A DNA stretch of 62,212 nt, counting the filler, from Jimgerdemannia flammicorona (lineage: Eukaryota), in assembly GCA_003990765.1 (NCBI GenBank). It is 3 parts of 3 records of this genome, joined end to end, with 100 filler letters (N's around TTAATTAATTAA, not from the genome) between each part and the next. Parts side by side here need not be neighbours in the genome. Positions count along the whole stretch, not along the records: positions 20,775 to 41,444 come from RBNJ01001619.1; 2 more parts are not named here. One strand, given 5' to 3'. The notes under the pieces were generated by a model. The model ran no database searches. It saw only the letters and a program-made list of their open reading frames with translations, and was not told where the DNA came from. The translations under genes were made by a program, and so were the position numbers. This document shows, in pieces, positions 20,675 to 46,400 of this stretch. The stretch's first letter is position 1. Each line of letters begins with the position of its first letter.

Positions 20675-20774
20675 NNNNNNNNNNNNNNNNNNNNNNNNNN
20701 NNNNNNNNNNNNNNNNNNTTAATTAATTAANNNNNNNNNNNNNNNNNNNNNNNNNNNNNNNNNNNNNNNNNNNN
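20675..20774. other. Assembly gap with artificial TTAATTAATTAA linker
   Basis: 44 N + TTAATTAATTAA + 44 N, identical to the second gap. Confidence 0.97.
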
Positions 20775-22929: not shown

Positions 22930-25099
22930 ACTTGGTGCCCATTGGCTGGTGATTCAAGATGAATCCCTCACTTTCAAGCTAAAAAATAAACAACCACCAC
23001 AACAACTATCCTGACTACAAGAGTTACCCCTATAAGAATTCAAGACAAGATGGAAATATATCTCTCTACATTCTATGGATATACTACTGAAGAGTCATTT
23101 CTGATCTTCATTGAAGACTTAGAACAATTCACTACTATACAAGCCCTCAATATGGATGCACAATTGGCCCTTCTACCAGTCAGCCTCAGAGGACCTGCTA
23201 GAGATAAGTTCAATGTAGCCATCATTACTGATACTGATGCAGCCAGACTTGCCAATATGAAGACCTTTATACTATACTGAAGAGATCAAGCAAGCTCTCA
23301 AGAATCAACTCAACACTATCTGCCAGAGACTCAGTGAAGATCCCAACTCATTCTATATCTGAATCTACTACCAGATTATCTTGGCTGGCTATGATGATCA
23401 CCTTAAGGAACAAATAGCAGATTCAATCTTCCTCAAAGGAGTTCACCCTGAAATTGCCCTAGTAATCTGGTCTACCCCAGCTACACTGACTCTTGATCAG
23501 AAATTGGTCTTTGCACAGAGATATTAGACTGACAGAAACTCTGCTGAACACTCAATAGAGAAAATAATTGACATCAAGATGGAGGCATCAAAGCCAACTA
23601 GTATCATACCTACTACAGTTGTAAACAGACAACCATCCCCACCTATCCCCAAGACAGCTAAAGCTGACCCAGTGGAGGAACTTGTCAAGCAGTTTGCCAA
23701 GATGACTGCACACCTTAGTGATGTTGTTAGAGAAGTCTGAAGTACTAATAGGAGACCAGTACAGAGATTTATAGCTGCTACAGAAGAACATAATATCACA
23801 TGCTTCTAATATAGATAAGAAGGCCACTATACAAAGAGCTGCATGATCAAAATAAGATGCAAAGCCCAACTGAGCAATGCTAGCAGAACTAGAGAGCAAA
23901 CCAATACAGTAGTTGTCAAGGAGCTCAAATTCTACCCTGCTTCTGAAGGTGCCAGAATCTGGTCCAAGCCCTATGATAAGAAGAGCAACAAAAAGCCATT
24001 TGAAAGACTGAAGAAGACCCCAGCTGTCACTATTCAAAGCAAGACCCAACCTGAGAAGATTGATCAAGACATAGAGTTAGATGAAGCTGCCTGACAAATC
24101 ATTGAAGGCACTACTCTAGTCTCAGAAGAAAGTGAAAGCAAGAAGGAACAGAAGCTACACAAGACCAAGATCCATCAGTATGATATCTACAAGGACCTTA
24201 AGGAATAGAAGATCAATGCTACTTTTGGACATCTAGCCGAAATCCCTACCTTCAGACAGCAGTTAAGAGTAGGACTTGCAACTACTGCCAAGAATCAAGA
24301 GTACAAGATTATAGAAGCTCACAATGAACAAGAAGATGATCAAGAAGACTCAGGTGAAGAATCTGAAGACTAGTACAAAACATCAGCCTATACCCCATAT
24401 CAGATTGAAGATTGTATCTTTGATGCTATCATTGATACTAGTGCTGGAGGATGCCTCATAAGCAAGAAGGCAATTGACTATCTAGACTGAAACATTGAAG
24501 AGTCTATTAAGATGGTTTATATTACAGCAGATGGTATACAAGCTACCCACCTTGGCAAAATCTGAGAAGTCTCCATCAAGATAGGAGGAGCTACTATTCC
24601 AGTAGATGAGATTGTTATAAGTACCACCAACTATGATATCCTCATTGGCAACTAATGGCTTCACAAGGCCAAGACCATCATTGATCTCAATACTCAGAAG
24701 ATATAGATCAACTATAGAGATAGAAAGGTACAAGTCTCTATCAATTTCTACAAAGAAGTTCTATCAGATATGGAGGAAGGAGATGAAGAGGACACAGAAG
24801 TCTTCATGCACTCAGTGAATAAGAACAAGAATAAGAACAAGATGCCTAAGCTCACAGATGAGCAGTGGTACAATAAGATCATCAATAGCTATGCCCCTCA
24901 AGGAAGATGCCCCTATGATACTAGGATGTACTGCTCTGAACACCTGAATGACTACTGGTTCTATATCAGTGAAGTCAGAAAAATCTGCCAACAGAAGCAT
25001 GAGCAAGAAGCTGCTAAAGCAAAAAGGAAAGCCAAAGAAGATGACCAGCCCTCAGAGCTTCAAGCTGACAGTAATGATGAGGAGAAATAAGAACCAAAC

Positions 25100-25518
25100 A
25101 TCACTCTCAAGGTCAAGAAGTTTCACCCTGAAGCCAAGATCCCAGAATACAAGACTGAAGGAGCCATAGGAATAGACATTGCCAGCATTTAAGATGCTAC
25201 CCTCAAACCACAGACCACCACCCTACTTGGTACTGGAATTGAAGTCAAGTTGCCAGAGAACCATACTGGAATTATCAAGACCAGGAGCAGTCTAGCCAAA
25301 AGCAAAATCTCAGTTGAAGAAGGAGTAATTGACCCTGATTATACTGGCAAGATCTTCCTTATAGTCAGGAATCACAACCCCATCACCCCATTTGAAGTCA
25401 AGAAGCATGACAGGATTGGCCAGATTCTGATCCACGAAATCAAGAAGCCCTAGATCACTAAAGCCATCAAACTCATCAAGACCAAGAGAGGAGAACAAGG
25501 CTTTAGATCTACTGGAAG
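25100..25518 (+). pseudogene. dUTPase domain of element A, between protease and RT
   Basis: GAIGIDI..GTGIEVKLP..KTRSSLA..GVIDPDYTGKI..DRIGQIL..RGEQGFRSTG (motifs 1-5). Confidence 0.92.
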
Positions 25519-25977
25519 AGGAGTCTATGCTGTCACTAAGATTACCAACCTTAAACATAAGAACAATAGGGATCAGAACAAGCACCCATATACCATTGGA
25601 GAAAATGTTTCCCTGAAAGAACAACATCTCAAGATCCTGCACCAGAATGAAGGAGTACTTGCTACAGACTTCAGGGATATCCACAAACAAGAACCCAAGT
25701 ACTACTATGAAGTTGACACCAGTGATACCAAGCCCATCTATCAGAAATCTAGACCAATACCATTTGTCTACAGAGAATGGCTGCAAGTAGAACTTAAGGA
25801 AATAGAAGGAGTTGGAATCATCAAGCAAGCTATCAGTCTCTGGGCTTCACCTATTGTTCTTGCTCCAAAGAAAGGAAGTAAGTCTGGAGAGTTTGTCCCA
25901 AGACTCTGCATTGACTATAGGAAGCTCAATGCAATTACCAAGAAAGATAGGCAGTCCTCTCTAAATATTCAAGAAAT

Positions 25978-28900
25978 TTTTTTTTTTTTTTTTTTTTTAT
26001 AATAACTTAGACTTCCTTCCTTTATTAACCCATCTATCCGATATAAATACATTGAACCCACCCCCTAACCAATCCCCCTAGGGGGGCCCCCCCTCCCTAC
26101 TCCCACCCAATAAATGGCTACTTTGTCCAACACTATCTCTACCCTCCCACTACTCTGTTCACAGATCCTTGCCACTAAGCCGTGACATTGCCCCCCCTGA
26201 GGACCCCAACCCACCCACCATCCAGTCAGCAGATCCCCCAACAACTCCTCCCACTATAATACCTTCTCCTGTAGTCCCATCTGCCTCCCCTCCTCGAATA
26301 CAAAAAGCCAATGTCCAGCCAGGCCCACCTACACTGCTAACACCCACCCTACAGTGAGCCAACTATCACCTCCACCACCCACTAACTGAGATCTCAAGTC
26401 CTCCCAGTGGCCTCCCTCACCTGCCAGCCTCTGCTCCACACTCAGCCTATTCACTATTTCTACCCAAAAGTCCCCCAATACCTCACACTCTCTCAGCCAG
26501 TGTTCTGGTATCTGTACAAGTCCTCCAGCTTGCCCAACATTATAACACTCCTCACAATCTAAATGGCCACCATCCACCAGATGCCTAGAGCAGTAGTTCA
26601 ACATGACATTCCTCCTCAGCATTTGCCACCATACCACCCAGAACTTGGGAGGGAGCCACCTCCGCACCTCAGCACTCCATGACCAGATACCTGCCCAGTC
26701 CCACTCCTTGCTGATCCCTGCCACCTGCCAGCCACTTGGCCAAAGATTCTGGCCAAGACCCTGCTGATACTCCACTCCAACTCCAATATCAAACTCAGTA
26801 AGAGAAGCACCCCCCAGAAGTAGCCTATCCCACCACCACATACCAGGACCCCACCTCACCTCCCTCTCATTTCCTTGCCAGTGCAGGCCATTATGGTGTG
26901 CTCCATCTACCACCCCCCACCAAAAGCCCTTAAACCGCAGATGCTGACTTCTATTCAGCCCCACCAAAGAGAGTAAATCTCTGGAGGACCTTCGAGGGGA
27001 GGTCCTCATCTTCCACACCTTCTGCATCAGTAGCACCCACCCCCTTCTCTGTAGTTCAACTGCTCTCTTCAACCACCAGGCTCACAAGCAGTACAGCCTT
27101 TTAGGGAGATCCACCAGGCCAAGACCTCCACTGACTACCAGTGTTGCAAGAGTATCCCAACTGATCTGGGATCTCCTCCCTGCCCAAATCCAATCTCTAG
27201 CCATTTTCATCAGCCTCTTCACCACTCAGGCTGGGAAGTCTAAGTGATAGGCCACATACCATAACTTGGAGAACCAGTAGACTTTCAGAATTGACACCCA
27301 CCCTTCCAGAGAGATATGGTGGCCTCCACAACTTCAAAGGGCCTTCCCCCAAATGGCTACCCTGCCCTCCCACCATACATGTGGCAAGACAGAACCATAT
27401 ACAGAGAGGAAGATGCCCAGATACCATACCATCTCACCAGTAGGGACAATTGTTCCAATGATGTCCACACCCACTAACCCATTCCCTAGCACCATTGTCT
27501 CACACTTATACCGGTTGAGCTTCGCCCCAGAGTGAGCTTCATATCATTCCACATCTCCTTAAGGGCCTTGACATCTGCCACTGACCCAAGTCCAACCACC
27601 ATGTCATCAGCAAAGGCCCCTACCTTCCACACTATACCATATATAGAGAGCCCTGCCACCCTCCAGCAAATCCTATCCATCAAAGGCTCTAATGAAAGGG
27701 CATATAGAACTGGGGACAGAGGGTCCCCCTGAGGAACCCCTCTTCCCAAGGGAAATGCCAGACCTCAATGACCATTACACATCAGTGCTGCTTGACTGCT
27801 AGCAAGCAGCTACAATATAGAAGCCCGAAATCTTGGGGGAATATCAATTCAATCCAACACCCTGCCTAGCCAAACCTGCTGTACCCAGTCATAGGCCTTC
27901 TCCTGGTCCAAAAAGACCAATCTTCCATCCAGTCTGCAAGCCCGGGCCCCTTCAATGACTCCATGCACCCATACAGTCCTATCCCTTATAAGTCTGCCCC
28001 TAACAAAGCCCTGCTGCTCCTCCCACAGTATCTGTTGGGCAACTTTCTGCAGCCTTGCAACAATCACCTTAGTCACCATCTTCCTGTCTATATTCAAAAG
28101 TATGATTGGCCTCCAATTCTTCCAGTCTTCCTGCCTCCCCTTGTCTTTGTACAATAGGGCCACCAGCCCGAGGTCCTGCTCTCCAACCCACTCTCCACTC
28201 TGAAGAATGTAATCACAGAGAACAGCCATCTCACCCAAAATTTCAGGGATCTTGACCATATTCTTCCAGAAGTCCCATGGTAGCCCATCCTCCCCTGGTG
28301 CCATTCCAAGCTTAGTTGCTGCAAGGACACACTGAATCTCCTCTCCTTGAACCAGTAAGATCAAGTCACCCATTCCCTCCACTTGTGGCAGCCTCCACTC
28401 CTCTAATGACTCTCCAATCACCTCCTCATCAGCACCCCCTTCCCCCTCACTCCATATACCCTGCCATCTCTTCTTCAAAACCCTTAAGATTTGTTGGGTG
28501 CCATGCACCATATCCCCCTCGGCATCCAAGACCCCCTCTCACCTATGTCACACCCTCCTAGCTTTGAGGAGTCTAGACAAGTACCTAGTAGGCAGCTCAC
28601 CCTCCTCAAGCCCCTGCCACCTTAGCCTGGCAGCCATTTCTCACATGTAAGCCTCCTCCTCCTCTTGTAGTACCTGTTACAGTTCCACTATCTCTAATTT
28701 TGCCCACTCTATCCTCCAATCCTCCACCCCATCAGAAGTAAGCAGATCTGCCCACTCCATTTGCAACCTCCTCAGCCTGCTAAAAGCACACCTCATGCAC
28801 TTTCTCCTCTGTCTCCCTGCTTCTCTACCAGCTCCTCCCCAATAGACCCTTGCAGCCTCTTTCAATCTCATCCAACAGACACCCACAGACATACCCTCTT

Positions 28901-31863
28901 GCCTCCAGGTAAAACCTTTGCCTAAATGTCCTCCACCCATGAGTCCCACAACCCCTTCTCAGCCAGCAGAGAGGAGTTAAGGTACCAATGTCCAGGTCCA
29001 TCTCCACTCCCCCCAAACTGCCCCTGCCCCAATAGTCCCCAGTGATCAGACCACAGACACCACTCTACCTCCAATGTCTTCCAGACATCAGAACCCCAAC
29101 ACTCTGCTGTCAGAATTCAGTCAATCCTTGTACCCAAGCCATTCACCCAATGTGTGTAGACCCTGTTATCACCCCACCATATTCTGCCTATATCCCTTAA
29201 GGAGCTCAAATTCTCCACCTCCACCCAAGCATCCAGCCCTCCACTTCTCCCCCCTGCATTCCTCCCTCCATCAGTTTGGTCCAGACTCTGATCTCAAACC
29301 ATATTAAAGTCTCTACCAAGAACATCGACCCCTTTCTCTAAGAGAATACCCTCCTCAAGCAGCTCTGTAATCCATGTAATCCTCTCACCCCTAACTGCTG
29401 GACAGTAGTAAGAGCCAACCCTCACTGACTCCCATCCTTGTCAGTGCCAATCTCTCCATATCAATCGATCCCCCCAGCTCCTGATTCCCCCCAATTCTCC
29501 TCTACTCTTCCTCACCAGAATCGCAACTTTTCCAAACCAAGTAGTAGCCCCACCCCATTCTCTAGTCCACTCTACCTGATTATCCTCATCCTCACATCAT
29601 ACATCCTATAGTAAAAAGAGATCAGCCTCCAATCCCCTGAGCCAAGTAAAAATGTTCTTATGCTGCCCAGATCCCCTTAGCCCATTCACATTCAAAGAGA
29701 AAATGTTGGTTGTACTGTTTATAAGAATAATGTTATATAGTGATCCCATTCTCTACAAGTCTGCACCCAGCTCCTCCTGCATCAAGTCCAAATTATATTC
29801 AGCAGCTAGCTCCTTTTTGCCAGCCTTCCATGCCTCCAACCCTCCCAGAAGTTCCACCATCACCCCATCCTCCCTCTCCTCAAGTCCTCATGATACTCCA
29901 GGCAGGCCTCCTGCCAGAGCTGCAAACCATGATGCTCTGCCTAACAGTAGGCAGTCTGCTCACTAGCAACAGCCCCCAGCTCTGCCTTCCTCACCTCATC
30001 AACCTCATATCTCTTCTCCTCCAGGAAGATCGCAAGTATCTCTACCTTCAGCACCTCCAACACTCCATCTCTATGCAGAATCCTTGCCCAATACTCCTCA
30101 GGCATGACACATAGGTCCACTTCACCCAATGTCTCCACCACAAGGTTATCTATCACCTTGCTCATTCACAGCAGGTTCCCCACCTCCTTCCCTCAAGGAG
30201 TCCCTGGCCTCCCTACATCCAACATTGTGGTATCAGCTCCTACACTAGCCACCTCATCCCACTCCTCCTCTGGGACATCCACTAGCTCATCCTCACCAAT
30301 TGCCACCACCTTTCCCCCTTTTGTCATATCAGGGACTCCAAAGTGTACCTGCTGGGCCCCCTTCATCAATACATCATCTGCTGCCCCTCTCTTCACCACC
30401 AGGCCCCTCCTAATAAGAGAGGGGGGGGGTGGCATCCAACTCCTGCTCCCAGACTTCGAAAGAACCATCTGCATAGGGGTCCTTACTTGGTACCTTCTCA
30501 GCCCCACCCTTGGTCACCTCCACCTCCCTTCCTCCTTTACTAGCCCGAACACTGGCTTCAATGCCCCCAGCCTCCCCTGTACTATCCACCTTCTTCTTAG
30601 TCCCTCCACTCATACTTGCCAGCAGCTCTTTCTACCACCTGCACCCCTGGGCCTACTCCCACTGCCCCTTGTCAGTTCGAATCCTCTTCCCATCAACAAT
30701 CTCCAGATGTGTTAACTCCTCATACAATTTCCAAGCCTTCACCCTCCTCTCAACAGCACTGCTCAACTCTTCCAGTACCTCCAACAAGTCCTCCTCCTTC
30801 TCTTCATTCCCTCACACCCTTGATACCTTACAGACAAAGGCCCCCCACATCAACACTGAGGGCCAGTTGCTCACCTTTCCTGTGGCCTCTCTTCCCACCA
30901 GTCTAATCCTCACATCCACATCACTAGTCCTAATAGAGGTCCCCTCTCACACCTGGAAACTGATATCCACCACCTCGCCATACTCTGCCATCACCTCCTC
31001 TATCCTCCTCCTAGTCTCCTCCTTCATCACAATGGGTACCCCCTTCACCAGCAGCTGCACCACCCTGGAGTCCCACCTCAAGCAGTGCATCATGGGGACT
31101 ACCACCTTGCCAACTACCACTCCAGACTTCAGTACCTCTTCCAGTGGTCCTGTCTCCTCAAAGTCCACCTCAACTCCCTCCAGGTCCTTCAAGAACTTCA
31201 CTGAGACAGTCCCAGCCACCTGCTTCAACACAAGCCCCAAGACCATCCTCGCTATCACTGCCAAGCCTCAGAAGCACAGTGTCACTATAAACTCCAAGAT
31301 CAACTTCCTGAGTAATGGTGCCACTGCCAGCCCCATCACACCATTAGCCAGGTCCCCCTTCTACATTGAGAACCCCTGCCCCTCACCTCTATCAGCTGTC
31401 ACATCTCTTTTTTTTTCCTGATTGCCCATCACACTGCCATCAGCAGTCCCATCCCCAGCCACTGCATCTCCAGCACCTATGCTTGCATCCCCCCCCTGGG
31501 CACCTCCCCCCCTCCCTAGGCTTGCCTTGCCCTTCCCTACCACAGCTCCAGCCCTACACCCAGCTGGCTATCCCCCATCCTTCACCTTATCTACAAAGCT
31601 CGAGGGGCCAGACCTCTCCCCATAACTACCTGACACCAGTCTACCTCCAGAGCCTCTGCCACCCTTCAAACCACCAAAGGCCCCCATCCCCAGGTCATAA
31701 CCCCTCCCGACCTGCTGCCAGCCAAAAGCCCCAGATCCACCTGACTCAGTACACCCAGCAGAACTCTTACTTGAAGACATTGTTATAATACCTTTCCTCC
31801 AGGTTGTGAAGAAAACTATTGCTTGAGGTTTGTGTAATGTGAATTGTACCAGAGAAAGGTTTG
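25978..31863 (-). mobile_element. Full-length decayed L1/Tx1-like LINE copy 3 inserted in the RT of element A
   Basis: Poly(T) at 25978. TSD ATATTCAAGAAAT at 25965-25977 and 31864-31876. ORF1 plus ORF2 with APE (FSLNVNGL), RT (GVPQGDPLSP, FADD) and a C-terminal CxxC..H..C. Confidence 0.93.
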
Positions 31864-34482
31864 ATATTCAAGAAATCCTTACTACTCTTAGAAATGAAGC
31901 CAAATACTACACCACCTTGGATCTGTTCTCAGGCTTCCATCAGATTGGTCTCACTCAAGATGCTAGTGAGAAATCAGCCTTTTTCACACCTAATGCCACC
32001 TATATCTACCTGCAAATGCCATTTTGAATGTGCAATGCCCCAGTAAGTTTTCAGTGAATGATGAACAGAGTCTTCAGCAATGAGATTGGAAAATGGTACT
32101 TTGTCTATATTGATGATGTGATCATCTTCAGCAACACTGTATGGGAACATATCAACCACATACAGCTAGTCCTCAAAAAGCTCAAGGAGCATGGTCTCTA
32201 CAACAAGCCCAAGAAGTGCAAGTTTGTAGGTCAGGAAATCACCTACCTAGGACACCTATGAACTGGAATGGAATCCACACAGACCCTATAATGATTGAGA
32301 CTGTTACAGCCTACCTAAGATCCACAATAACTACAGAAGTCCATGCCTTCCTTGGACTGGCCTCCTACTACAGAAGATTCATCAAAGAATATTCTAATAT
32401 TGCAGCACCAATCTATGAGCTACTAAAGAAGGAGACCAAATTCAAATGGACCAAGAAATGCCAAGAAACCTTCAATGAACTCAAGACCAGGTTGACCTAA
32501 GCACCTATCCTCAGAAGACCAGATTGGAACCTAGAATTCATTCTGCAGACAGATACAAGTGCTATAGGACTTAGAGCAGTCTTAGTTCAGAAGAAAGATA
32601 GATATGAATATATCATCTCCTATGTAAGTCAAGATACTCATGGTGTAGGACAGAACTACAAGTCATGAAAGCTCAAATACTTGACAGTAGTTTGGGCAGT
32701 AGACAAGTTTCACTACTATCTAGCTGGGAAACACTTCACTATTCAAACAGACTATTCCACTCTTGTCTGGCTATTCCACACTCTGAACTAGAAAGAAATA
32801 TATGTCAGATAGATCTACAGGCTGCAAGAATATGATTGGACTATCAAGCACTACTCAGGAAGAACCAACACCAATACTGATGCACTATTAAGGATACTCC
32901 AAAACACTCTCATTAAGACTATTTAATAAGAATAAGAAGTTATACTATGAATTAATCAGCTACCTTGGGCAGCAGAAGATGCTCAACCACCTTGAACTCT
33001 GGATAATCACTATTATCAACTGGACTTAGAAACAGTTTGATCTAGAAAATACTATACTCAGAAAAGAAGGAAAGCTTGTAATACCCAAATACAAGAAGTA
33101 TCAAGTAATGAAGGAAATACATAAACAAGGACACTAAGGAGGAACCAATATATATAACAAGGCAAGAAGAACTATGTGGTGGCCCCTGATGGTAGATGAC
33201 CTACAACAATTTGTCAAAGAGTGTGATAAGTACTAAAAACAGAAATAAGATCAGTAAGACCTAACACCTGAGTCATCAAGAATTGAGCCTATCCCCTTCT
33301 ACTATATTACAATAGATATCATTGGACCACTACCAGTAATACTATCAGGAAACTGCTATATTATAGTTATTGTAGACCTCTTTACCAAATGGATAGAAGC
33401 AGAAGTATTACAAGAAGCCAATGCTCTCTCTATAGCCGACTTCCTGTACTGAGAAATCATCTGCTACTACAAGACACCAAAGCAAATCACAACAGACTGC
33501 AGTATAGAATTTGTCAATGGATTCTATGAGATAATATATCAGAAATATAAGATTCAGCACATCAAGACCACCACATACCACTCTCAAGGAAATGGACAGA
33601 TAGAGAGAACCAACAAGACCCTCAAGAACATCTTGTTGAAGATCTCAGATACATTTGAGAATTGGGATAATTCCCTCCCAATGGCTCTCTCTGTCCTATG
33701 AGATATATGGTCACAGAGTATACACTTTATCCCAAAAGAACTGTTCTTCTGAGAAGAAGATTCTGATGGAACCTCAGCCACAAATCTAAATCTAACTTGG
33801 ATACAGATTGACTCAGAAATCCAGAAACTATACCAAATTAGGAAGAAGGCTGAAGATTATATCATCAAGTTATAAGCACTGATAAGAAAGAATGCAGAAA
33901 AGAATTACAAGACCCTAGAACCCATCCAAATCAGAGAAAAGGTCCTACTATATTGAAATATGATAGAAGCCTCATGCACACGAAAACTAGAGCCCAAATG
34001 GGAAGGACCCTTCTATGTACAAGATATCAAGAGAACTACCTTCTGGCTTAGAAAAATCTCAGAGACTATACTGCCTACCATGGTACACAGACTCAAGAAG
34101 TACTATGAACCTATATAAGAGAAGCAAAATGTGATAACTACTTATGAGGTTCTAGTCTGCAAATCATAACAATATATTCTATGACCAGCAGGCTATCTGT
34201 CTGGACCATTCTTTAAAAGATACAATACTAGCAACTACTCATCCATGAGACTTTCAAAGCCAGAGAAATTTGAACTATCAACTAATTAGTCAAGATCTGA
34301 ATCAGGCCCTTGCTCTATATGAAGGGAGCAACTCTTCACCATTATGTCAAAATATATAGGGAAGACACCAGTCTATAAACACCACTTTTCAACCCCCTGG
34401 CAGAGGTTATGGAATCAGCAAATTTTTCAGAACTGGACCAATGAATAAGGATGCTCAAGGAGATCCTTATTCAGGAGGAAGA

Positions 34483-35635
34483 TATAATGGTGACCTCAGA
34501 ATAATGATATCAGAGATAGCAATTCCCCACAAGCCACTAGATCAGAGTACAAGAAGATCATATGTCATGACTTACCCAGACTATGAGATGAGTAATGATG
34601 ACCAACTATGAGTCATTATGACCACAGTATAGGTATCTTGAGGAATATAAAAGAAGGATCAAGGAACCACAGTAGCAGCAATACAATAAGACCCACTAAT
34701 TCCAAAATACCTCAAAGACTTATCAAAAATAAAATGCCTGCTGCTTACCAAACCTCAAGGTCAAGGAACTACTATGACATCAGTTGAAGAAAGGATATTC
34801 TAAGACATCAGAAGAGCCATGAGGACCCATACAAGAAGGACTCCTAGCTATCAGAGATCTTTATCACTTTATCCTCTACCACTATGAAATGGAAACAAGA
34901 ATCACTATTGCTACCAAATGTCTCCAGATGTGGCAGGAGTATAAAATAGGAAACCTTCTTTACTGGGAGTTTCTACAGACCAGCCCTCAAGAGTTACAAG
35001 ATGCCACTCTTATGGATATATATGAAACAAGGACAGCTAAGAAGATTTATCAGATCTTCAGATATACACCATGGTCAATCCCCAACTTGAAGTATATTAG
35101 AGTCTCAGACTTCAGAGATCTGTCAGCCTGCCATATCAATGTACTAGAAGCCAGGGTGGCTACAGAAGCCCAGTCTACTATCACCCTCAATAGTGATGAA
35201 GTAGAAGACTTCTGGCATCCCATCCTCCAGGACAACCCAGATCAATTCTTGCAAGGATTGATCTCAGTATTCCAAAGCCCAAGCATCCAGATTAGACCTC
35301 CCCAAGACCCCACATTTGTTTCCTATTTCATAAAAGAGAACCTCATAGACTGGAGAGCCCCAGACCTCCTTGTTCCTGCCACTGCTGAATATGATGATGT
35401 CATTGGTAATGACATCATCCTGCATGATATATGCAAAATGAGCAATCTATATAATGAGACCGAAACATTCACAGATCTCATCTCCTTCAGTGATGATGAG
35501 GATGAAGCCCCTATAGTCCTGAACATTCTGCTCTAAAAGTCTCTTAGTTATACCGAATTATGCCAGCATTCTTTTCCTGTATAACAGCTATTTTTCTATT
35601 GGCATTCTGACCTTATATGACTCGGAATTATTCCA
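34483..35635 (+). repeat. 3' LTR of element A (interrupted at 35635 by LINE copy 4)
   Basis: Colinear with the 5' LTR up to ..GAATTATTCCA and preceded by the PPT. Confidence 0.88.
34889..35536 (+). CDS. Unknown-function ORF (at least 215 aa) encoded inside the LTR of element A
   Basis: Stop-free for 215 codons in a heavily mutated element. The homologous frame in the 5' LTR (21278-22428) is broken by stops and the LINE insertion. Confidence 0.6.
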   Translation: METRITIATKCLQMWQEYKIGNLLYWEFLQTSPQELQDATLMDIYETRTAKKIYQIFRYTPWSIPNLKYIRVSDFRDLSACHINVLEARVATEAQSTITLNSDEVEDFWHPILQDNPDQFLQGLISVFQSPSIQIRPPQDPTFVSYFIKENLIDWRAPDLLVPATAEYDDVIGNDIILHDICKMSNLYNETETFTDLISFSDDEDEAPIVLNILL

Positions 35636-38600
35636 TCTGTGAGTACATCTTTCTCCAGTAACATTCAGGTTACACAATCCTTTGGCAATACTTTCGATGC
35701 AGTTTCTAGAGACAAGCTACTAGTATCATGGCTACCGATGAGAATCCTGAGGTATGTACTGAGCAGGGTAGCCCTGGAGCGTTTGGATGGCAGCATGTGG
35801 GGAGAGGATCTGGCTTGGGGGGAAGCATGAGAGGCCTGCTGGTGGGAGGACGTGGTGGAGGAGGAGGCAGGGCTGGAGGGCAAGGGTCTGCCAGTGTCAA
35901 TGGGGAAGGATCTGGGTTCCTGAGCTTCGCAGACAAGGTCAAGGGGAGTGGGTGGCCGGCTGGTAGTAGGGCTGGTGCTGCTGAGGGGAAGGGCAAGGCG
36001 AGCCTAGGGAGTGGGGGTGGTGCTCTGGCTGGGGGTGCAGGAGTAGGGGCTGGAGGAGTGGTGGCTGGGGGTGTGACTGCTGATAGGGGCATGATGGGGA
36101 ATTAGCAAAAAAAAAGAGATGTGATGGCTGATGGCCAGGTGGGGCAGGGGGTCCTGATGCAGAAGGGGGACCTGGCTGATGGTGTTACGGGGCTGGCAGT
36201 GGCACCGTTACTCAAGAAGTCGATCTCGGAGTTTGCGGTGACTCTGTGCTTCCAAGGCTTAGGGGTGACAGCAAGGATGGTCTTGGGGCTTATCTCGAAG
36301 CAGGTGGCTGGGGCAGCTTCGGTGAAATTCCTGAGGGGTCTGGAGGGAGTTGAGGTGGGCTTTGAGGAGGCGGGCCCACTGGAAGAGGCGCTGAGGGCAG
36401 GAGTGGCAGTTGGTGAGGTGGTGGTCCCCATGGTATGCTGTTTGAGGTGGGACCCCAGAGTGGTACAGCTGCTGGTGAAGGGGGTGCCCACAGTGACGAA
36501 GGAGGAGACGAGGAGGAGGGTTGAGGAGGTGATGGCGGAGTATGGAGATGTGGTGGATATTGGCTTCAAGGTGTGGGAGGGGATGACAATCAGAACTGGC
36601 GATGTTGATGTCAGGATTCGGCTGGCAGGGAGGGAGGCCACAGGGAAGGCTGGTGACTAGCCCTCAGTGTTGATGTGGGGGGCCTTCATTTGTAAGGTGT
36701 CAAGGGTAAAGGGGAGTGAGGAGGAGGAGGAGGATTTGTTGGAGGCATTGGAGGAGATGAGTGGTGCAGTGGAGCGGCGGGCAAAGGCCTGGAAGCTTTA
36801 TGAGGAGTCAACACACTTGGAGATTGTGGAGGGGAAGTGTATCCGCACTGACAAGAGGCAGTGGGAGAGGGCTCAGGGGCGCTTGAGACAGAGGGAGCTC
36901 TTGGCAAGTATGACTGGAGGGGAGAAGCAGAAGGTTGATGGGGCTGAAGGGTCTGGAGGTGTCAAAGCCAGTGTATGGGCTAGCGAAGGCAGCAAGGAGC
37001 CGGTGGTGAACGAAGAATGGGCTGCGAAGATACTGGGCAGGGATCCCTATGCAGATGGTACTTTCGAGGTCTGGGAGGAGGAGTCGGATGGTACCCCCCC
37101 CCCACTTATCAGGAGGGGCCCGGTGGGGTGGAGAGGAGCAGCGGAAGATGTACCGATGAAGGGGGCCCAGCAGATTACCTTTGGGGTCCCAGATGTGGCA
37201 AAAGGGGGCCAAGTAGTGGCTGTTGGTGAGGATGAGCTGGTGGATGTCCCAGAAGAGGAGTGGAATGAGGATGCCAGTGTGGGTGTGGATACTACGATGC
37301 TGGATGCAGGGTGGCCAGGGACCCCTGGAGGGAAGGAGATCGGGAATCTGCTGTGGATGAGCAAGGTGATGGATAACCTTGCAGCTGAGAAGTTGCGGGA
37401 AGTGGATCTGAGGGTTATGCCAGAGGAGCACTGGGCACAGATTCTGCGAGGTGCGGGAGTGGTGGAGGCACTGCAGATGGAGATTCTTACGATACTGCTG
37501 GAGGAAGAGGGTTATGAGGTGGATGAGGTGAGGAAGGTGGAGCTGGTGGTTGTTGCGGGTGAGTGGGAGGCCTACTGTTGGGCAGAATGCCATGGTTTGC
37601 AGTTCTGGCAGGAGGCCTGTAGGGAGTATAGGGAGGACTTTGAGGAGAAAGAGGATGGGGCAATGGTTGAACTTCTTGAGGGATTGGAGGCACAGGGAAC
37701 TGAGAGGAAGATACTGACTACAGGACACGACTTGGATTTGGCACAGGTGGACTTGAGTGCGGATTTGTAGAGGAGAGGTTTTATCTTTAACAATATTCCT
37801 CATGAACAGTACAACTAACATTTTCTCTCTCAATGTGAATGGTCTTCGGGGATCTGGGTGGTGTAAGAACATTTTTACTTGGCTAAAGGGATTGGAGGCT
37901 GATCTCTTTCTACTGCAGGATGTATGGTGTGAGGATGAGAATGACTGGGTGGAATGGACTCAGGAATGGAGTGGGGCTACTGCTTGGTTTGGAAAGGTGG
38001 TGATTCTGTTGAAGAAGGGTAGAGGAGATTTGGAAGGGATCAAGAACTGGGGAGATCGACTGGTCTGGGGTGAATGGCACCGGCTGGGGTGGGAATCAGT
38101 GAGGGTGGGCTCATACTACTGCCTGGCAGCTAGGGGAGAGAGAGTTGCATGGATCAAGGAACTACTGGAGGAGGGCGTTCTCTTGGAGGATGGGGTTGAT
38201 GTTCTTGGTGGGGATTTTAACATAGTTCGAGATTTGCAGTTGGATAGGACTGATGGAGGAAGAAATGCTGGTGGGAGGAGTGGTGGTCTGGATGCATGGG
38301 AGGAGGTGGAAAACCTTAGCTCCTTAGGGGATATGGGCCAAACATGGTGGGGTGGCACCAGGGTCTACATGCACTGGGTGAATGGCTTAGGGACAAGGAT
38401 TGACTGGATTCTGACAGCTGAATATTGGGGTGCTGATGTCTGGAAGACTTTGGAGGTGGTGTGGTGCCCGTGGTCTGATCACTGGGGACTGATTGGGCAG
38501 GGGCAGTTTGGGGGGAGTGGAGATGGACCTGGACATTGGCATCTTAACTCCTCTCTGCTGACTGAGAAGGGGTTGTGGGACTCATGGGTAGAGGAAGTGC

Positions 38601-41444
38601 AGGCAAAGATTCCGTTTTGGAGGCAGGAGGGTTTATCTGTGGGTGTCCATTGGATGAGATTGAAGGAGGCTGTGAGGGTTTATTGGGGAGGAGCTGGTAG
38701 GGAGGCAGGAAGAAGGAGGAGGAAGCGAATACAGTCTGCCTCCAATAGGCTGGGGAGATTGCAGTTAGAGTGGGCAGATTTGCTTGCATCTGATGAGGTG
38801 GAGGATTGGAGGTTAGTGAGGGCGAAATTGGAGGTTGTAGAACTGCAACAGGTGTTGCGAGAGGAGGAGGAGATTCATATGCGAGGTATGGCAGCCAGGC
38901 TTAGATGGCAGGGGCTTGAGGAGGGGGAGCGGCCTACTAGGTACTTGTCTAGGCTACTCAAAGCCAGGCAGGTGAGGCATAGGTGGGATGGGATCTTGGA
39001 TGCTGAGAGAGAGCTGATGCATGGCATGTAGCAGATCCTGGGAGTGCTGAAGGAGAATTGGCGGGGTCTGTGGAGTGAGGAAGAAGGGGGTGCTGATGCA
39101 GAGGTGATTGGTGACACACTGGAAGAGTGGGAGCCACCACAGGTAGAGGGTCTGGGTGACTTGACCTTACCTGTCCAAGAGGAGGAGATACAAGGTATCC
39201 TGGCAGCGACTAAGCTTGGAACGGTGCCAGGGGAGGATGGGCTACCATAAGACTTCTGGAAGTGGATGGTGGAAGTCCCAGGGATGCTGGGTGAGATGGC
39301 GGCCCTCTGTGACCATGTTCTTTTGAATGGCATGTGGGTTGGTGAGCAGGATTTAGGGCTGGTTGCCCTACTGTACAAAGACAAGGACCAGTATGAGGAT
39401 TGGAAGAACTGGAGGCCAATCATGCTTCTGGACATGGATCGGAAGTTGGTGACTAAGGTGATTGTTGCAAGGCTACAGAAGATTGCTCAACAGGTGCTGG
39501 GGGAGGAGCAATGGGGCTTTGTAGGTGGTAGACTTATAAGAGATGGAACTGCCTGGGTACATGGCATTATTGAAGGGGCCCAGGCCTGTGGACTGAATGG
39601 GAGACTGGTCTTTTTGGATCAAGAGAAGGCCTATGACTGTGTTCGGCAGATTTGGTTGGGCAAGGTACTGGACAGGATTGGCATTCCACTACAGTTTCGA
39701 GCCTCTATGTTGAGTTTGTTGGATGGGAGTCGAGCAGCGCTGATGTGTAATGGTCACAGGGGTTTGGCATTCCCCTTGGGGAGAGGGGTCCCTCAGGGGG
39801 ACCCACTGTCCCCTATCCTTTATGCTCTCTCCTTGGAACCTTTGATAGACAGGATCCACAAGAGGGTGACTGGGCTCTCTGTATATGGCATGGAATGGAA
39901 GGTGGGGGCCTTTGCAGATGACATGGTAGTTGGACTTAGATCAATAGCAGATGTAGAAGCTCTTCGGGAAACAGTGGAGTGGTATGAGGCACACTCTGGA
40001 GCAAAGCTCAACTGGTATAAGTGTGAGACAATGGTGCTGGGGAATGGGCTAGTGGGAGGGGATGTCATTGGAACAATTGTCCCTACAGGAGAGGTGGTGC
40101 GGTACCTAGGTATCTTCCTCTCTATATATGGCTCTGTCCTACTGTGAATATGGTGGGAGGGGAGGGTGGCCATTTGGGGAGAGGCTCTAAAAGGCTGGGG
40201 GGGTCAGCACATCTCCCTGGCAAGGAGGGTGGCAATTCTGAATGTATACTGGTTCCCCAAGCTGTGGTATGTGGCATATCACTTAGACTTTCCCACTTGG
40301 GTGGTGAAGAGGCTGATGAAACTGGCTAGGGAGTGGATTTGGGCTGGCAGAAGGGCCCAGATCAGTTGGGATATCCTTGTCGAGCCAGTGCTTAGGGGAG
40401 GCCTGGGCCTTGTGGATTTCCCTAAGTATCTACACTGCCTGCGAGCTTGGTGGTTGAGAAGGGCTGTTGATCTATAGGGTGGAGGTTGGGTGCCATTGAT
40501 GAAGAAGGTGTGGGAGATGCGAGTCTCCCCCCGGGGGTCCACAGGGGATCTACTCTCTTTAGTGGGTCTGAATAGAAGCCGATGGTTATGGTATAAGGGC
40601 TTCTGGTGGGAAGTGGTTGAGGGGGCACATCGGATAGGCCTGCGCTGGCATGGAAATGAGGGGGAGGAGGTATGCGGTCCAGCTATGTGGCGATGGGACT
40701 GTCTGCTTCTAGGGAGAGTTCCACTAGCTGAGTTTGATATTGGTGATGGAGTAGAGTGTCAGCGGCAAATTGGACAGGACCTTTGGCCGAGTAGCTGGCA
40801 GGCAGTGAGGATTGGTGAAGAGTGGGATTGGGCAAGGATCTAGTCTTAGTGTACAGAGGTTCGGCGGTGGCTCCCTCCCAAGTTCTGGGTAGTGTGGTGG
40901 CATATGTTGTGGAGGAATGTTATGTTGAACTTCCATGCTGGGCATCTGGTGGATGGGGGTCAGCTGGATTGTGAGGAGTGTTATAATGTTGGGCAAGTTG
41001 GGAGTTTTGTGCAAATGCCTGAACATTGGCTGGAGGAGTGTGAGGTCCTGGGTGACTTTTGGATAGCTATAGGAGACTGCCTTGGGGTTGAAAGGAGATC
41101 AGATGGGGAGAGAGGTCGCTGGGAAGATCTGGAATCTAGACTTGTGAGAGGTGTTGGTAATAGGTGGCTTACCATAGGATGGGTTGTGGTGGTGTGGGTG
41201 GAGTTGGCTGGACATTGGCTCTTTGTTTTTGAGGAGGGGCGCCAGATAGGGATACGGGAGAAGTTATTGAGATGGGAGGAGTTGGTGGCAGATTTGTTAA
41301 CAGTGTGGTGGGTTGGGTGAGGACTGCAAGGTGGGTGATGCCACCATCTGGTGGAGGAGATCTGTTGGCAGAGTGATGGGTGGATGGCGATGGTGTTTGA
41401 TAAAGTAGTTTTTTGTCAAGAAGGGGTAGGAGGAGGGAGTGGGG
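35636..41444 (+). mobile_element. Near-full-length L1/Tx1-like LINE copy 4 (ORF1 35728-37770, ORF2 from 37802), 3' end lost in the gap
   Basis: ORF2 MNSTTNIFSLNVNGL..LLQD..GGDFN..RIDW..SDH (APE); PGEDG, NWRPIMLL, LDQEKAYD, GVPQGDPLSP, FADD, YLG (RT); CEEC..EHWLEEC. Several in-frame stops. Confidence 0.94.
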
Positions 41445-41544
41445 NNNNNNNNNNNNNNNNNNNNNNNNNNNNNNNNNNNNNNNNNNNNTTAATTAATTAA
41501 NNNNNNNNNNNNNNNNNNNNNNNNNNNNNNNNNNNNNNNNNNNN
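41445..41544. other. Assembly gap with artificial TTAATTAATTAA linker
   Basis: Same 100-bp structure as 20675-20774. Confidence 0.97.
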
Positions 41545-43464
41545 TTTAAAAATAAATCTTCAATCATCTGAAATAAGTTGCTTCAGCCAACTAAAGAAAA
41601 AAAAGAATATATACTATAGCAAACTCTGGTGTGCACTGGATCATTACAAATGTTGAGTTCCAATATATACAGATATCTAATATAAGCTCTTTTGGAGCTA
41701 AACTGATTACTCTATACTATATAGTGAATTTGTCTCATTATTGTGGAGATGATCAGACTGACCAACCAGTTTGCACAGCTTGGAAATTATACTCAGGGCT
41801 TCTTCTCTCTCAGATGTTTTGTCTATATGTATAAGATAGTCCTGAATAGCAAGGTTCAGTATGTGGGCCTGGTATTGTACATAATAGCTTTCTATACTGA
41901 AGACTATATTTTCTTATTTGAGGCTGACTACTAAAACTTGAAAAAATGTTGAGTTGTTTATAGCATTGTCTGTTATAATAGCCAAAATCTGTACTTGAAA
42001 TATTTAGTTGGCAAATTTATGTGAAAATAAATAACCAATAAAATCTGTTTTATTTTAGAATCTCTCTCAAAATGCCAATCTGATAGCAAGCCCCCTTTTT
42101 TACCTTGGTTGTGATCCTAAGCTCCTGGATATAACTAATAAAAGTATCTGTGATGTTGTCTCCAGAATAAGGGCCAGCAAGTTTGACAAAGTCAAGGGTG
42201 AGAGATTTAAGCTACCAATTGAGGTCAATCTAATAACTGGTAATATCCAGAAATGAAATTGCATTGGGGGATGTCTATGTGTCGATTATAAATAAAATTT
42301 TTCCTGCCAAATTCTACTTATTAAATGTAACGTTAAATTGGTGAGCTCTTTATAAAAATATATATATAATTCAGCTTGCAAAGGTCATGATGCTGCTCTT
42401 ATTTTATCTGAAGTACATATCTGGTAGAGATTGTTGTACTCCTTCCTATAGATCTCCAGGACATCTTTGTAAATAGTATCAGTACTTGGCAAATATAAAT
42501 CATACTTGAGAAGGCCAAAGATACTATGCAATTGATCACTCTCAATGATTGTGAATGGCTGGTCTGTATATACAATCTAGTGAATGAGCTAATTTCAAAA
42601 TTCTGCCAAAGAGTATGGCTAAATATTTTTGATTAAATAGGGTTGTTGATATAGAAATGGTCAGGTAATCAGATAAATATACTTACTACAGCTTAGATAT
42701 TGATTTTATTTGTCTTTATATTCTTTTTGATTTTGTCAGAGTACTTGTCTTTTATGTATTAATATATGTTTGAAGTCATACTACCAAGCATTTTGAACTT
42801 CTGGCTGGTGCAGTTTATAGGGGTGGATGAAACAGTATCATGTGTGTATCAAACAAAAAGTATCAGTTATATCAATAGGTGCATCTTAATTTTTTACCTG
42901 CAATAATTACAAACAGCATTATCTCCTATATTAGTACAATGTTGTCAGATTTTGGAGTAAGGATTGTGTAAAAGGTGTGGAACTATTGACTTGAAGCATC
43001 ATCAGTACTGTGAACTGTTGAAGACAGATCTGTTGATATATATATGTTTGTGTGTTTGCATGTGCATAGGTATGTTTGCATATGTGTGTATTGTATATAT
43101 GGATGCATCCAGCATATGAGTCATGTGGAGGATTTGGATTAGAGGATTTGATTGAAGGATTTGAATGAGAATTCAGATTAAAGGATTCGAATTGGAGGAT
43201 TTGAATTAGAGGATTTGAATTGGAGGATTCAGATTAAGTAATTTGGATTGAGTAATTCAGATTGAGTAATTCAGATTGAGTGATTTGAATTGAGTAATTT
43301 GAATTGAAGTGGTTTGGTTGGGTGATTCAGATGGGGCAATTCAGATGGAGCAATTCAGATTAATCTGAGTTGATTCAGATAGCTTCATATTTGAGATTCA
43401 GATCAAACCATTATGTGATAAATTGAATCTGGATTTGATTTGAATTGACTCATTCAGAGCACTA
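41545..43464 (-). mobile_element. Decayed intron-containing hAT DNA transposon (5' part) inserted in element B
   Basis: BED-finger remnants (I*QHC..AVCNYC; MTSNI); LIH*IVYTDQPFTIIES..LPSTDTI; IDT*TSPNAISFL..GPYSGDNI; AIITDNAINN; QAHILNLAIQD; ELILD...WNSTFVM. Terminus TAGTGCTC at 43464 fits the (C/T)A(A/G)NG hAT end. Confidence 0.85.
43125..43450. repeat. Subterminal ~15-bp tandem repeats of the hAT element (GGATTTGAATTRGA / GAGTAATTCAGATT variants)
   Basis: Degenerate array seen directly next to the putative terminus. Confidence 0.8.
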
Positions 43465-46400
43465 TTTATAAGCTACTCCTTTCTTGAGAAGGGTCTGAAT
43501 TGGGGCAGCAATTTGAACAAAGTTCTTAATAAACCTTCTGTAGTAGGATACTAGTATCAAGAATGATAATATTTCCTTCAAGGTCTTGGATACTGGCCAA
43601 TTGTTGATTTTCTCAGTCTTTTTTGAGTCTATATAGATTCCTTCTTTTGAAACTATAAATCTAAGGAATTTGAGTTTCTGTTTTCCAAAATAGCATTTCT
43701 TAGTATTGAGTCTCAGGTGGTTCTTACAAGTAAGCTTGAAGAATTCTTCTAGGTAGTATAGGTGTTTCTCAAAATTTACTAAATAGATGTTTGAATTATC
43801 TATATATATAATCAGATAGTAGTGGATCAGGGTAACATAGACTGAATTCATCATCCTCTGGAAGATAGAGGAGATATATTATAAAGTTCAAAGAGTATTC
43901 AGAGATATTCAAATAGTTTTTCTAGAGTATGAAAGGCTGTCTTCTGAATGTCTTTGGGATCCATGAGGATCTTATGGAATCCTGCAAAAAGGTCTATACT
44001 ACTGAGGTATCTGATATCTTATAACTGATCCAAGAGGTCATTAATTCTGGACAAAGGATAGATATTCTTTTTGGTGACTGAATTGAGTTTTCTATAATCT
44101 ATATATGTAGGGTCTCTATCTTCTTTCTTTAGTACAATAAGTATAGAACTGGCCCAAGGGCTAGTAGAGAGTTAGATGACTCCATTGTCCAAGAGTTCTT
44201 AAATGTGATCCTTTTTAAATATCTTTAAGTAATGGAATATTCTATAGAATTTCTGCTGGATGGGTGTTGCATTTTCTATATTTATGCTATAGTGGTATGA
44301 TGGGTTATATGTCAGATTGCCATAGTCTGTAGTAAAGATATCTTGATATTTGTTGAGGAGTACCACTAGTTATTGTCATTGGTGGAGTGTCAATTCTTCT
44401 CCAATATTAGTGAAAGGCTTCACTGTCTTCTGGGTTACAGAGGAGTCTTTCCTTTCTTCTGAAACCTTTTGCTATTTCCTGATAAGTTTAGTTGAGAAAA
44501 GGCATTAGATATTCTATAATAGTTTCTTTTAGCAATATGATGGTTTCCCAACTTTGATTGGTTGCTTGGGAGTGCACTGGATTCATCTTGTCAGAGAATG
44601 TGTGTCCTTCTATATCTAGGTACAGAATATCTTCATTGGGTTCAAAGAAAAGATTTCTGAGATTAGGTGGTACAAAGATTTCAAAGATGGTTTGCTCTCT
44701 AGACTCCAGAATGAGATTCTTGTGCAGTTTGACTGGTTGGCAGTATACTTGCTGGGGAACATTCCTCTTGAGATAATTGACTTAAAGGAGGTATATCTCA
44801 GGGAAGTGGGGATGGGCCTGGACATTGGTGCCTCAATTCTTCTTTATTGGATGATAAGACCCAGTGGGATGAGTGGGCTAAAGACATTCAATTGAGGGTG
44901 GAGAACTGGAGGCAGGAAGGGGCCTCAGTTGGGACTCAGTGGATGAGAATGAAGGAAATGGCCAGGATTTACTGGAGGGAGGCTGGCAAGGAGACAGGGA
45001 AGCAGCAAAAGCAATGAGTATATTGGGCCTCTACTAGATTGGTGAGACTCCTGGAGGAGTGGGCAAGGCTGATGATGTTGGAGGGAGAAGAAGATTGGAG
45101 ATTAATGAGGGTGAAAATGGAGATTGGGGAACTTCAACAGGTGCTGTAGGAGGAGGAAGAGGCAAGGGTACAGAGCTTGGCAGCACGTCTTCGCTGGCAG
45201 GATCTGGAGGAAGGAGAGAGGCCTTCCAAGCTTCTTACAAAGGCCCTTAGGGCGAGGCAGGTACAGCAACAGTGGGAAGGGGTATTGGACTCTGATGGTA
45301 TACTGGTGCATGGTGTACAGGACATTCTTAGATTGCTAAAGGAGAGATGGAGTGGATTGTGGAGTGAAGAGGAGGGTGGGGCAGATGCCACTACAATTGA
45401 ATGAACATTGGAGGATTGGCACCCACCACAAGTCGAAGGGCTAGGAGATCTGGTGATGCCTGTACAGGAGGATGAGATCCACCAGGTTCTTGCCGTGACA
45501 ATACCAGGTACAGCACCTGGGGAGGATGGTCTGCCCTGGGACTTTTGGAAGCGAATGGTTGGAGTTCCAGGGGTAATGGGAGAGATGACAGCTTTGTGTG
45601 ACCTTATTCTACAGACAGGGAGATGGGTGGGGGAGCAGGACCTTGGGCTGGTGACACTGCTGTACAAAAACAAAAGAAGGTAGGAGGATTGGAAGAACTG
45701 GTGGCCAATAATGTTGCTAGATATGGACAGGAAGTTAGTAACTAAGGTGGTGGTGGTAAGACTACAGAAGGTAGTCCAGCAGGTCGTGGGTATTGAGCAG
45801 AGGGGATTTGTGGGTGGTCGGCTCATCAGAGATAGCACTGCCTGGGTGCATGGCATTATCGAAGGGGCAAGGGCCTGTGGACTGGATGGGCATCTAGTCT
45901 TCTTGGACCAGAAGAAGGCATATGACTGGGTGCAAAGAGTCTGGCTGGCGAAAGTCTTGGATAGAATGGGGGTTCTGCATCAATTCTGGTCAGCGATGGT
46001 CAGCCTACTGGAAGGGAGTAGGGCTATACTCATGTGTAATGGACATAGAGGGGTAGCATTCCCCTTGGGTAGGGGGGTGCCCCAGGGGGATCCATTGTCC
46101 CCTATTTTGTATGCTCTTTCCCTGGAACCCCTTATGGACTGAATTAGGCGGAGAATAGTGGGGCTCTCTGTCTTTGACATAGGATGGAAAGTTGGGGCCT
46201 TTGCTGATGACATGGTGGTGGGTTTGGGTTCAATTGCTGATATTGAGGAGCTCAAGAAGACTGTGGAGTGGTATGAGGAGTACTCTGGAGCTAAGCTGAA
46301 TTGGCATAAGTGTGAGATGATGGTGCTAGGTAATAGCCTGGTGGGAGGGGAAGTTATAGGAACAATCATCCCCACCAGGGAAGCAGTGTGGTACTTAGGT

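Follow-up and report, generated by a model that had tools for sequence, protein, structure and literature searches.

The window analysed here is a stretch of 62,212 nucleotides (nt) from the fungus Jimgerdemannia flammicorona (assembly GCA_003990765.1), made up of three separate pieces joined end to end by N44-TTAATTAATTAA-N44 spacers at 20675-20774 and 41445-41544, so that neighbours across these spacers are unlinked. The middle piece (20775-41444) consists of repeats throughout and contains a Ty3/gypsy retrotransposon. Its long terminal repeats (LTRs) are the plus-strand direct repeats at 20864-22527 (5' LTR, starting TGGTGA and finishing in ATTATTCCA) and 34488-35635 (3' LTR, 1148 nt), which enclose ~12 kb, are 86.6% identical and have ends of the TG...CA type (TGGTGA...TTCCA). 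The subject of this analysis is a protein-coding frame carried by these LTRs. In the 3' LTR it appears as a stop-free open reading frame (ORF) of 215 codons on the plus strand (34889-35536; ATG at 34889, TAA at 35534-35536), set in a stop-to-stop frame of 237 codons (34823-35536) that lies wholly within the repeat.

The initial annotation had reported this 215-residue ORF together with a counterpart in the 5' LTR, and both were confirmed, the frame being present in the two repeats. In the 5' LTR the plus-strand gene copy is interrupted after codon 248 by a 5'-truncated tail of a long interspersed nuclear element (LINE) with poly(A) (21854-22344, plus strand), bounded by a 12-nt target duplication, AATGAGACTGAA, at 21842-21853 and 22345-22356. 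The first 248 codons of this copy (21110-21853) begin with what is now ACA and contain four internal stops, at 21179 (TAA), 21320 (TAG), 21461 (TAG) and 21692 (TAA), all derived from Gln/Trp-type codons; the last 23 codons and the stop occupy 22357-22428 (TAA at 22426-22428). With the LINE insertion (21854-22356, including one duplication) set aside, the 5' copy holds one frame across 272 codons. The 215-codon ORF of the 3' LTR corresponds to the C-terminal four-fifths of the former gene. The original start and basic N-terminal part (34734-34848, plus strand) keep the ATG at 34734 and are broken by two deletions, one of 2 nt after 34779 and one of 11 nt after 34848, with only the final 229 codons in phase. 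Contigs of sequencing runs X1-X3 were aligned to 31859-35700, X1 with 2652 contigs; some of X1 carried extra letters at the places of both deletions, those at the second (11-nt) place being present in one contig only, and the comparison covers 40 of 457 differences. Neither copy in the window is still functional, and both have undergone neutral decay since the element inserted. When the LTR was shuffled 2000 times with dinucleotides preserved, the longest stop-free stretch averaged 79 codons and never exceeded 160, and none of the shuffles (0/2000) reached 237.

Database searches identified a family of relatives of the LTR protein. A word-seeded search returned six matches at E<=0.01 among 173 candidates, with identities of 60-74%; an exhaustive search of 1.84 billion representatives returned six at E<=0.001, one of which (P0013) was dropped, and added members at 30-42% identity; and a profile search recovered 12 relatives among 8000 scored candidates. 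Two matches were discarded, P0013 as a 709-residue repeat protein in which six short stretches matched, judged spurious, and P0017, with a coverage of 6% and an E of 2.8e-4, and P0007, which has a deviant C-terminus, was excluded from alignments A3, A4 and A7. The relatives are stand-alone ORFs of 87-342 amino acids (aa) on contigs of 567-4848 nt, and several, at 215-342 aa, are intact and full-length. No fused form was seen, and a search at 600-2000 aa likewise found none, which constitutes weak evidence. At the DNA level, a scan of metagenome_contigs with P0011 identified a single locus, L001. No relatives were obtained among the 250 pattern matches of a metagenome_contigs scan with alignment A2, the 210 of a viral_contigs scan or the 65 of a genome_contigs scan with A2.

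L001 is a contig of 1535 nt from another source, with an intact homologue of 291 codons at 376-1251 that shares ~40% aa identity with the window protein and whose length was matched in 1 of 2000 shuffles. The contig begins TGGT and ends ATTATT, resembling the window LTR (TGGTGA...ATTATTCCA), a likeness suggesting that it is probably one LTR assembled alone. It also contains a direct repeat of a ~25-nt motif (GTCAGGCGGAAC...TCAGAACA.AAG), at 166-196, ~100 nt upstream of the TATA box described below, and at 1470-1510 near its 3' end, possibly a control element that the LTR carries twice.

The comparison of the window LTRs with L001 provides evidence of past selection. In nucleotide-only alignments of the ORF core, identity at first, second and third codon positions was 86/169, 117/169 and 63/169 (0.51/0.69/0.37) for the 3' LTR, and 91/169, 111/169 and 67/169 for the 5' LTR. 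Second positions are hence the most conserved and third positions the least, pointing to selection at the protein level. In a protein-guided alignment with L001, aa identity was 0.41 for the frame of the gene versus 0.21-0.22 for the two alternative frames, which contain 6-9 stops. At the level of sequence comparison, these patterns and the homologues demonstrate a real LTR gene, evidently held under purifying selection between lineages, and they bear out the earlier proposal of an accessory gene in the LTR of a Ty3/gypsy element, one that is no longer functional here but was formerly selected.

The relatives also delimit the gene. Five full-length ones (P0003, P0010, P0011, P0014 and P0015) start with MP(A/P)xR at the aligned position of the ATG at 34734, and the six closest finish in LN(F/I)LL. 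On this alignment, the true start is read as the ATG at 34734 (MPAxR...; ACA at 21110 in the 5' LTR), giving a gene of ~271 codons, and the ~25 nt ahead of it are similar in the window and L001. The frame arithmetic of the initial annotation was correct, the ORF being in frame with an ATG at 34181 and, in the 5' copy, with one at 20984 (one stop before METRI, four before the insertion). Its suggestion that the gene might extend to either of these positions found no support: the relatives start at 34734, the frame from 34181 to the ORF contains 19 stops in 214 codons, and a stop in L001, 17 codons upstream of its ATG, closes the equivalent of the 20984 extension. In the window, the stretch of 42 codons that starts at 20984 is free of stops, but it contains the TATA box and has no counterpart in any homologue.

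A putative promoter element is located at a conserved distance from this start. The sequence TATAAAAGAA occurs on the plus strand at 21022-21031 in the 5' LTR, where 88 nt separate it from the former start codon downstream, and at 34646-34655 in the 3' LTR, 88 nt upstream of the ATG at 34734; these are its only occurrences in the 62-kb window. L001 has a single occurrence (296-305), which precedes its ATG by 80 nt (expected number 0.01; a match in 1 of 200 shuffles), so that the distance to the ATG is 80-88 nt in both lineages. The non-coding parts of the window LTR and L001 do not align, except for this TATA box and a stretch of ~25 nt leading up to the ATG. The layout common to both thus runs from the LTR start through 160-295 nt, TATAAAAGAA, 80-88 nt, ATG, ORF and stop to an LTR end that follows after ~100 nt in the window, where the ORF finishes 99 nt short of it, and after ~285 nt in L001; each LTR accordingly holds a TATA box and a complete reading frame. 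The conserved spacing suggests that the gene probably lies downstream of the LTR promoter, and a TATA promoter within the LTR driving the ORF is the layout we favour. The position had initially been compared to that of nef and sag; the location of the gene wholly inside the LTR agrees with this comparison, but a placement in U3 gains no support, the conserved TATA box upstream of the ATG arguing against it.

The encoded protein has a predicted isoelectric point of 4.1-4.9 and a polarised charge distribution. An Arg-rich head (45 N-terminal residues with a net charge of +4 to +8) is present in four of the five forms beginning MPxxR or MFQD, the remaining one (P0011) having +1. The tail, probably disordered, is strongly acidic, its net charge ranging from -10 to -19 across the 75 C-terminal residues. 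Six of seven sequences contain a DLI[STNI]F motif. Among the sequences compared, the C-terminus reads LNFLL or LNILL in the four closest and LNFL or LNFT in L001 and P0011, and is not recognisable in P0014; the LNFLL terminus is an LxxLL-type motif. One member contains PPAY. The core is predicted to be helical, and AlphaFold models of the whole protein and of the core alone have mean confidence values (pLDDT) of 48.8 and 47.9. No hydrophobic segment exceeds seven residues, and the longest uncharged run is of 6-7 residues, in keeping with the earlier judgement that the lack of a transmembrane-like stretch sets the protein apart from Env. A Pfam match to ATG5_HBR (E 0.088, in 2 of 12 members) was disregarded, and the best score in the ESM Atlas was 0.83, below lead level. 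Judging from its make-up alone, the protein could tentatively act in trans in the nucleus, regulating its own element family or serving it as an adaptor; the likeliest such role would be that of an activator of LTR transcription, an assignment that we hold as possible and no firmer.

The two LTRs of the window differ at 154 of 1147 aligned bases, and 137 of the 154 differences are transitions. The initial annotation had presumed C-to-T changes. For repeat-induced point mutation (RIP), the customary thresholds are a TpA/ApT ratio above 0.89 and a (CpA+TpG)/(ApC+GpT) ratio below 1.03. Classical Neurospora-type RIP is not supported, as both indices fall outside these thresholds in either LTR, with TpA/ApT at 88/115 and 88/121 (0.73-0.77) and (CpA+TpG)/(ApC+GpT) at 175/115 and 167/102 (1.5-1.6). 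CpG sites are instead almost gone, with 0 and 3 in the window LTRs versus 42 in L001, and we read the damage as CpG loss plus further transitions.

The interior of the element (22528-34487, plus strand) encodes gag, protease, dUTPase, reverse transcriptase (RT), RNase H and integrase, and its coding frames are disrupted by numerous stops and frame shifts. Translation with stops as X revealed, after a gag-like part, the Ty3/gypsy pol order of protease, RT, RNase H and integrase (in order, RVP_2, E 5e-7; RVT_1, 1e-23; RT_RNaseH_2, 2e-28; Integrase_H2C2, 3e-12; rve, 1.5e-8), and a dUTPase (PF00692, E 1.1e-24) between protease and RT, at residues 872-1000 of the frame from 22517. A full-length minus-strand LINE encoding endonuclease and RT (26088-31858) interrupts the gypsy RT, and a polypurine tract, AGGAGGAAGA (34473-34482, plus strand), is found 5 nt ahead of the 3' LTR. 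The window element is a dead, env-less, dUTPase-bearing Ty3/gypsy element. The five bases TATAA precede both LTRs (20859-20863 and 34483-34487), and the LTR may accordingly start 5 nt ahead of TGGTGA; the start at 34488 is favoured because L001 begins TGGT. A sequence identified by eye, CCAGCAyyCTTTTyCTGTATmAC, is present in the final 100 nt of the LTR (22454-22480 and 35553-35578) and again across the junction of the 5' LTR with the interior (22524-22550). No solo LTR occurs in the window.

The remainder of the window contains other mobile elements and two further coding regions. Copies of the LINE family are located at 26088-31858 (minus), 35649-41444 (plus; beginning 14 nt past the 3' LTR), 21854-22344 (plus), 44907-47663 and 61264-62210; they are 69-77% alike, and the family shows ~52% GC and an extreme strand skew (GC skew about +/-0.5). 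Other, distant gypsy fragments, all on the minus strand, lie at 42400-44300, 47971-49853, 52129-55165 and 58509-61091, with 26-48% aa identity to the window element in most tblastx segments and a second dUTPase at 60264-61091; a tblastn comparison of these fragments with the LTR protein family gave no match. A Fungal_trans transcription factor, in keeping with a fungal host, is encoded at 17661-20183, and a long minus-strand ORF at 7592-11326 contains MORC2-type chromo, MBT, SAWADEE and Tudor reader domains.

The account we consider probable, with confidence somewhat above even, is that the ORF represents what is left of a ~271-codon accessory gene carried wholly inside the LTR by a dUTPase-bearing Ty3/gypsy family. 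In such a family the TATA box would drive the gene, a poly(A) site would follow the ORF inside the LTR, and transcription from the 5' LTR would make the gene the cap-proximal cistron of the LTR-started RNA; the gene stands alone, and its start, stop and TATA box are conserved. A more far-reaching version, which we regard as unlikely, would make each LTR a self-contained cassette of TATA promoter, ORF and terminator for a trans-acting activator or counter-silencing factor of the element's own LTRs.

Several observations weigh against the account of an LTR-borne accessory gene. Between the two window LTRs, the differences within the ORF are spread evenly over codon positions (30/29/33), indicating no constraint, and single-hit codons comprise 21 synonymous and 46 non-synonymous changes, against 224 and 460 possible transitions. 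The proposed test of selection by synonymous and non-synonymous change between the LTR copies gave neutrality; because a single template gave rise to both LTRs when the element inserted, this result is uninformative on earlier function. The family is represented at the DNA level by two lineages only, the window and L001, and the suggestion that L001 is an LTR comes from its ends only. The protein database comprises called ORFs only, so that broken relatives are under-counted. For the LTR protein, Pfam returned no families, PDB sequences no relatives and Foldseek against PDB no match at E<=0.001, and the best hit of the VIA wide search (Z 5.4) was to a single long helix, all its matches being long-helix look-alikes; neither family nor fold searches thus back the proposed function, and both models lie below a pLDDT of 50. 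At the window element, neither a primer-binding site complementary to a tRNA end nor a self-priming repeat was recognised, nor did a search of the LTR for a self-priming or primer-binding complement that would place the RNA start yield a convincing inverted repeat. A target-site duplication of the gypsy element was likewise not recognised, its flanks, TATAA and TCTGT, being different. Expression of the gene is putative, as are both ends of its transcript, the start and the poly(A) site. Lastly, if the TATA box were the genomic promoter, an ORF of 271 codons upstream of gag would be expected to block scanning to gag, and a second start site, splicing or reinitiation would therefore be needed.

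This last difficulty would not arise in an arrangement resembling sag or nef, in which synthesis of the genomic RNA would begin within the final ~100 nt of the LTR. The ORF would then be part of U3 and be expressed from the 3' LTR via a spliced or subgenomic RNA or a private U3 promoter, and the genomic RNA would have no long ORF preceding gag. TATA-like words (TGTATAAC, TTATATG) do follow the stop codon, and the sag gene of mouse mammary tumour virus (MMTV) is located in U3. The sole conserved promoter-like element found, however, precedes the ORF, with the same spacing in both lineages, and R plus U5 would have to be shorter than ~60 nt. We consider this arrangement rather doubtful, though the likeliest of the alternatives. 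A chance open frame in a mutated repeat can be practically dismissed, being refuted by the shuffling result at 237 codons, the intact homologues and the codon-position pattern.

Two further explanations accept the conserved frame and assign it another origin. LTRs are rich in cis elements, and the frame might have been kept open by constraint on LTR DNA or RNA with no protein made. Yet nucleotide-only alignment finds second codon positions to be the most conserved and third the least, start and stop are both conserved, the frame persists at 30-40% aa identity, and the non-coding LTR is unalignable save for the TATA box and the ~25 nt that precede the start codon, leaving this a very improbable explanation. 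Passive carriage of a captured host gene or fragment by one element lineage appears hardly more plausible. Extra ORFs of retroelements are often captured genes, as stated in excerpts of PMC5408684; nevertheless, searches of 5.8 billion clusters, 1.84 billion representatives, Pfam and PDB yielded neither a cellular homologue nor a domain, the relatives are all short stand-alone ORFs on short contigs, and selection persisted between lineages that are 30-40% identical. An accessory gene of the element family itself remains the preferred reading.

To our knowledge, accessory genes inside LTRs are known mainly from a few vertebrate retroviruses. The sag gene of MMTV (the 'LTR ORF') lies in U3, and nef of human and simian immunodeficiency viruses (HIV/SIV) and bel/bet of foamy viruses overlap the 3' LTR. 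Like these, the window gene is an accessory coding gene in or overlapping the LTR, and in all such cases every LTR therefore carries a gene copy. It differs from retroviral sag and nef in its fungal host, its env-less Ty3/gypsy element and the conserved TATA box upstream of the ORF, and its product bears no relation in sequence or fold to Sag or Nef (Pfam 0, PDB 0, Foldseek none); Sag is, moreover, a type II membrane glycoprotein, whereas the window protein has no membrane anchor. In make-up only, the window protein also resembles retroviral transactivators with an acidic activation end such as foamy-virus Tas/Bel1, likewise a small, nuclear-looking protein encoded at the LTR end with basic and helical parts and an acidic C-terminus studded with hydrophobic residues. 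The Cassandra terminal-repeat retrotransposons in miniature, which carry a 5S RNA gene in each LTR, share with the window element the trait of an independently transcribable gene in a retrotransposon LTR, but theirs is a polymerase III RNA gene in plants and that of the window is a protein gene. Boty brtn is antisense.

Extra ORFs of gypsy-like elements have also been described outside LTRs. According to parts of PMC3485330, ORF0 of rice Retrosat2, RIRE3 and RIRE8 and of related plant gypsy elements lies between the 5' LTR and gag. As described there, it resembles the window gene in being an extra, fast-evolving ORF of unassigned function upstream of gag-pol in long-LTR gypsy elements, and differs in lying outside the LTR, in plants, while the window ORF is inside the LTR, in a fungus; the two are compared here by description. 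In excerpts of PMC5408684, ORF3 of bdelloid rotifers is placed after pol, is thought to be expressed from spliced messages, and is in several cases of recognisable enzymatic origin. Its carriers are dUTPase-bearing gypsy-like elements, as is the window element, with extra ORFs that are diverse and in some cases common to several element families, but the window gene lies in the LTR and has no recognisable enzymatic origin. The Cer1 CERV is another extra ORF in a gypsy-like element (PMC10309623), and Boty brtn is mentioned in a passage of 10.1101/2021.04.13.439636. The expression 'LTR ORF' is used in the literature searched almost only for MMTV; in the passages concerned of PMC12037069 and PMC6673714 it denotes ORFs of LTR elements generally. 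No account of an LTR-internal protein gene in a fungal LTR retrotransposon emerged from our literature searches.

Retrotransposon LTRs are usually treated as non-coding control regions. If the interpretation of an LTR-borne accessory gene is correct, annotation of such repeats as LTRs only would miss genes, solo LTRs could stay coding, and regulatory complexity like that of retroviruses could evolve in env-less retrotransposons. Should each LTR moreover have been a self-contained cassette, a positive loop would be fed continually by complete elements, by 3' LTRs and even by solo LTRs, and fungal retrotransposons would have their own equivalent of the regulatory genes found in complex retroviruses. 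The gene would also offer a testable handle on how the transposons of repeat-rich soil fungi cope with methylation-based silencing.

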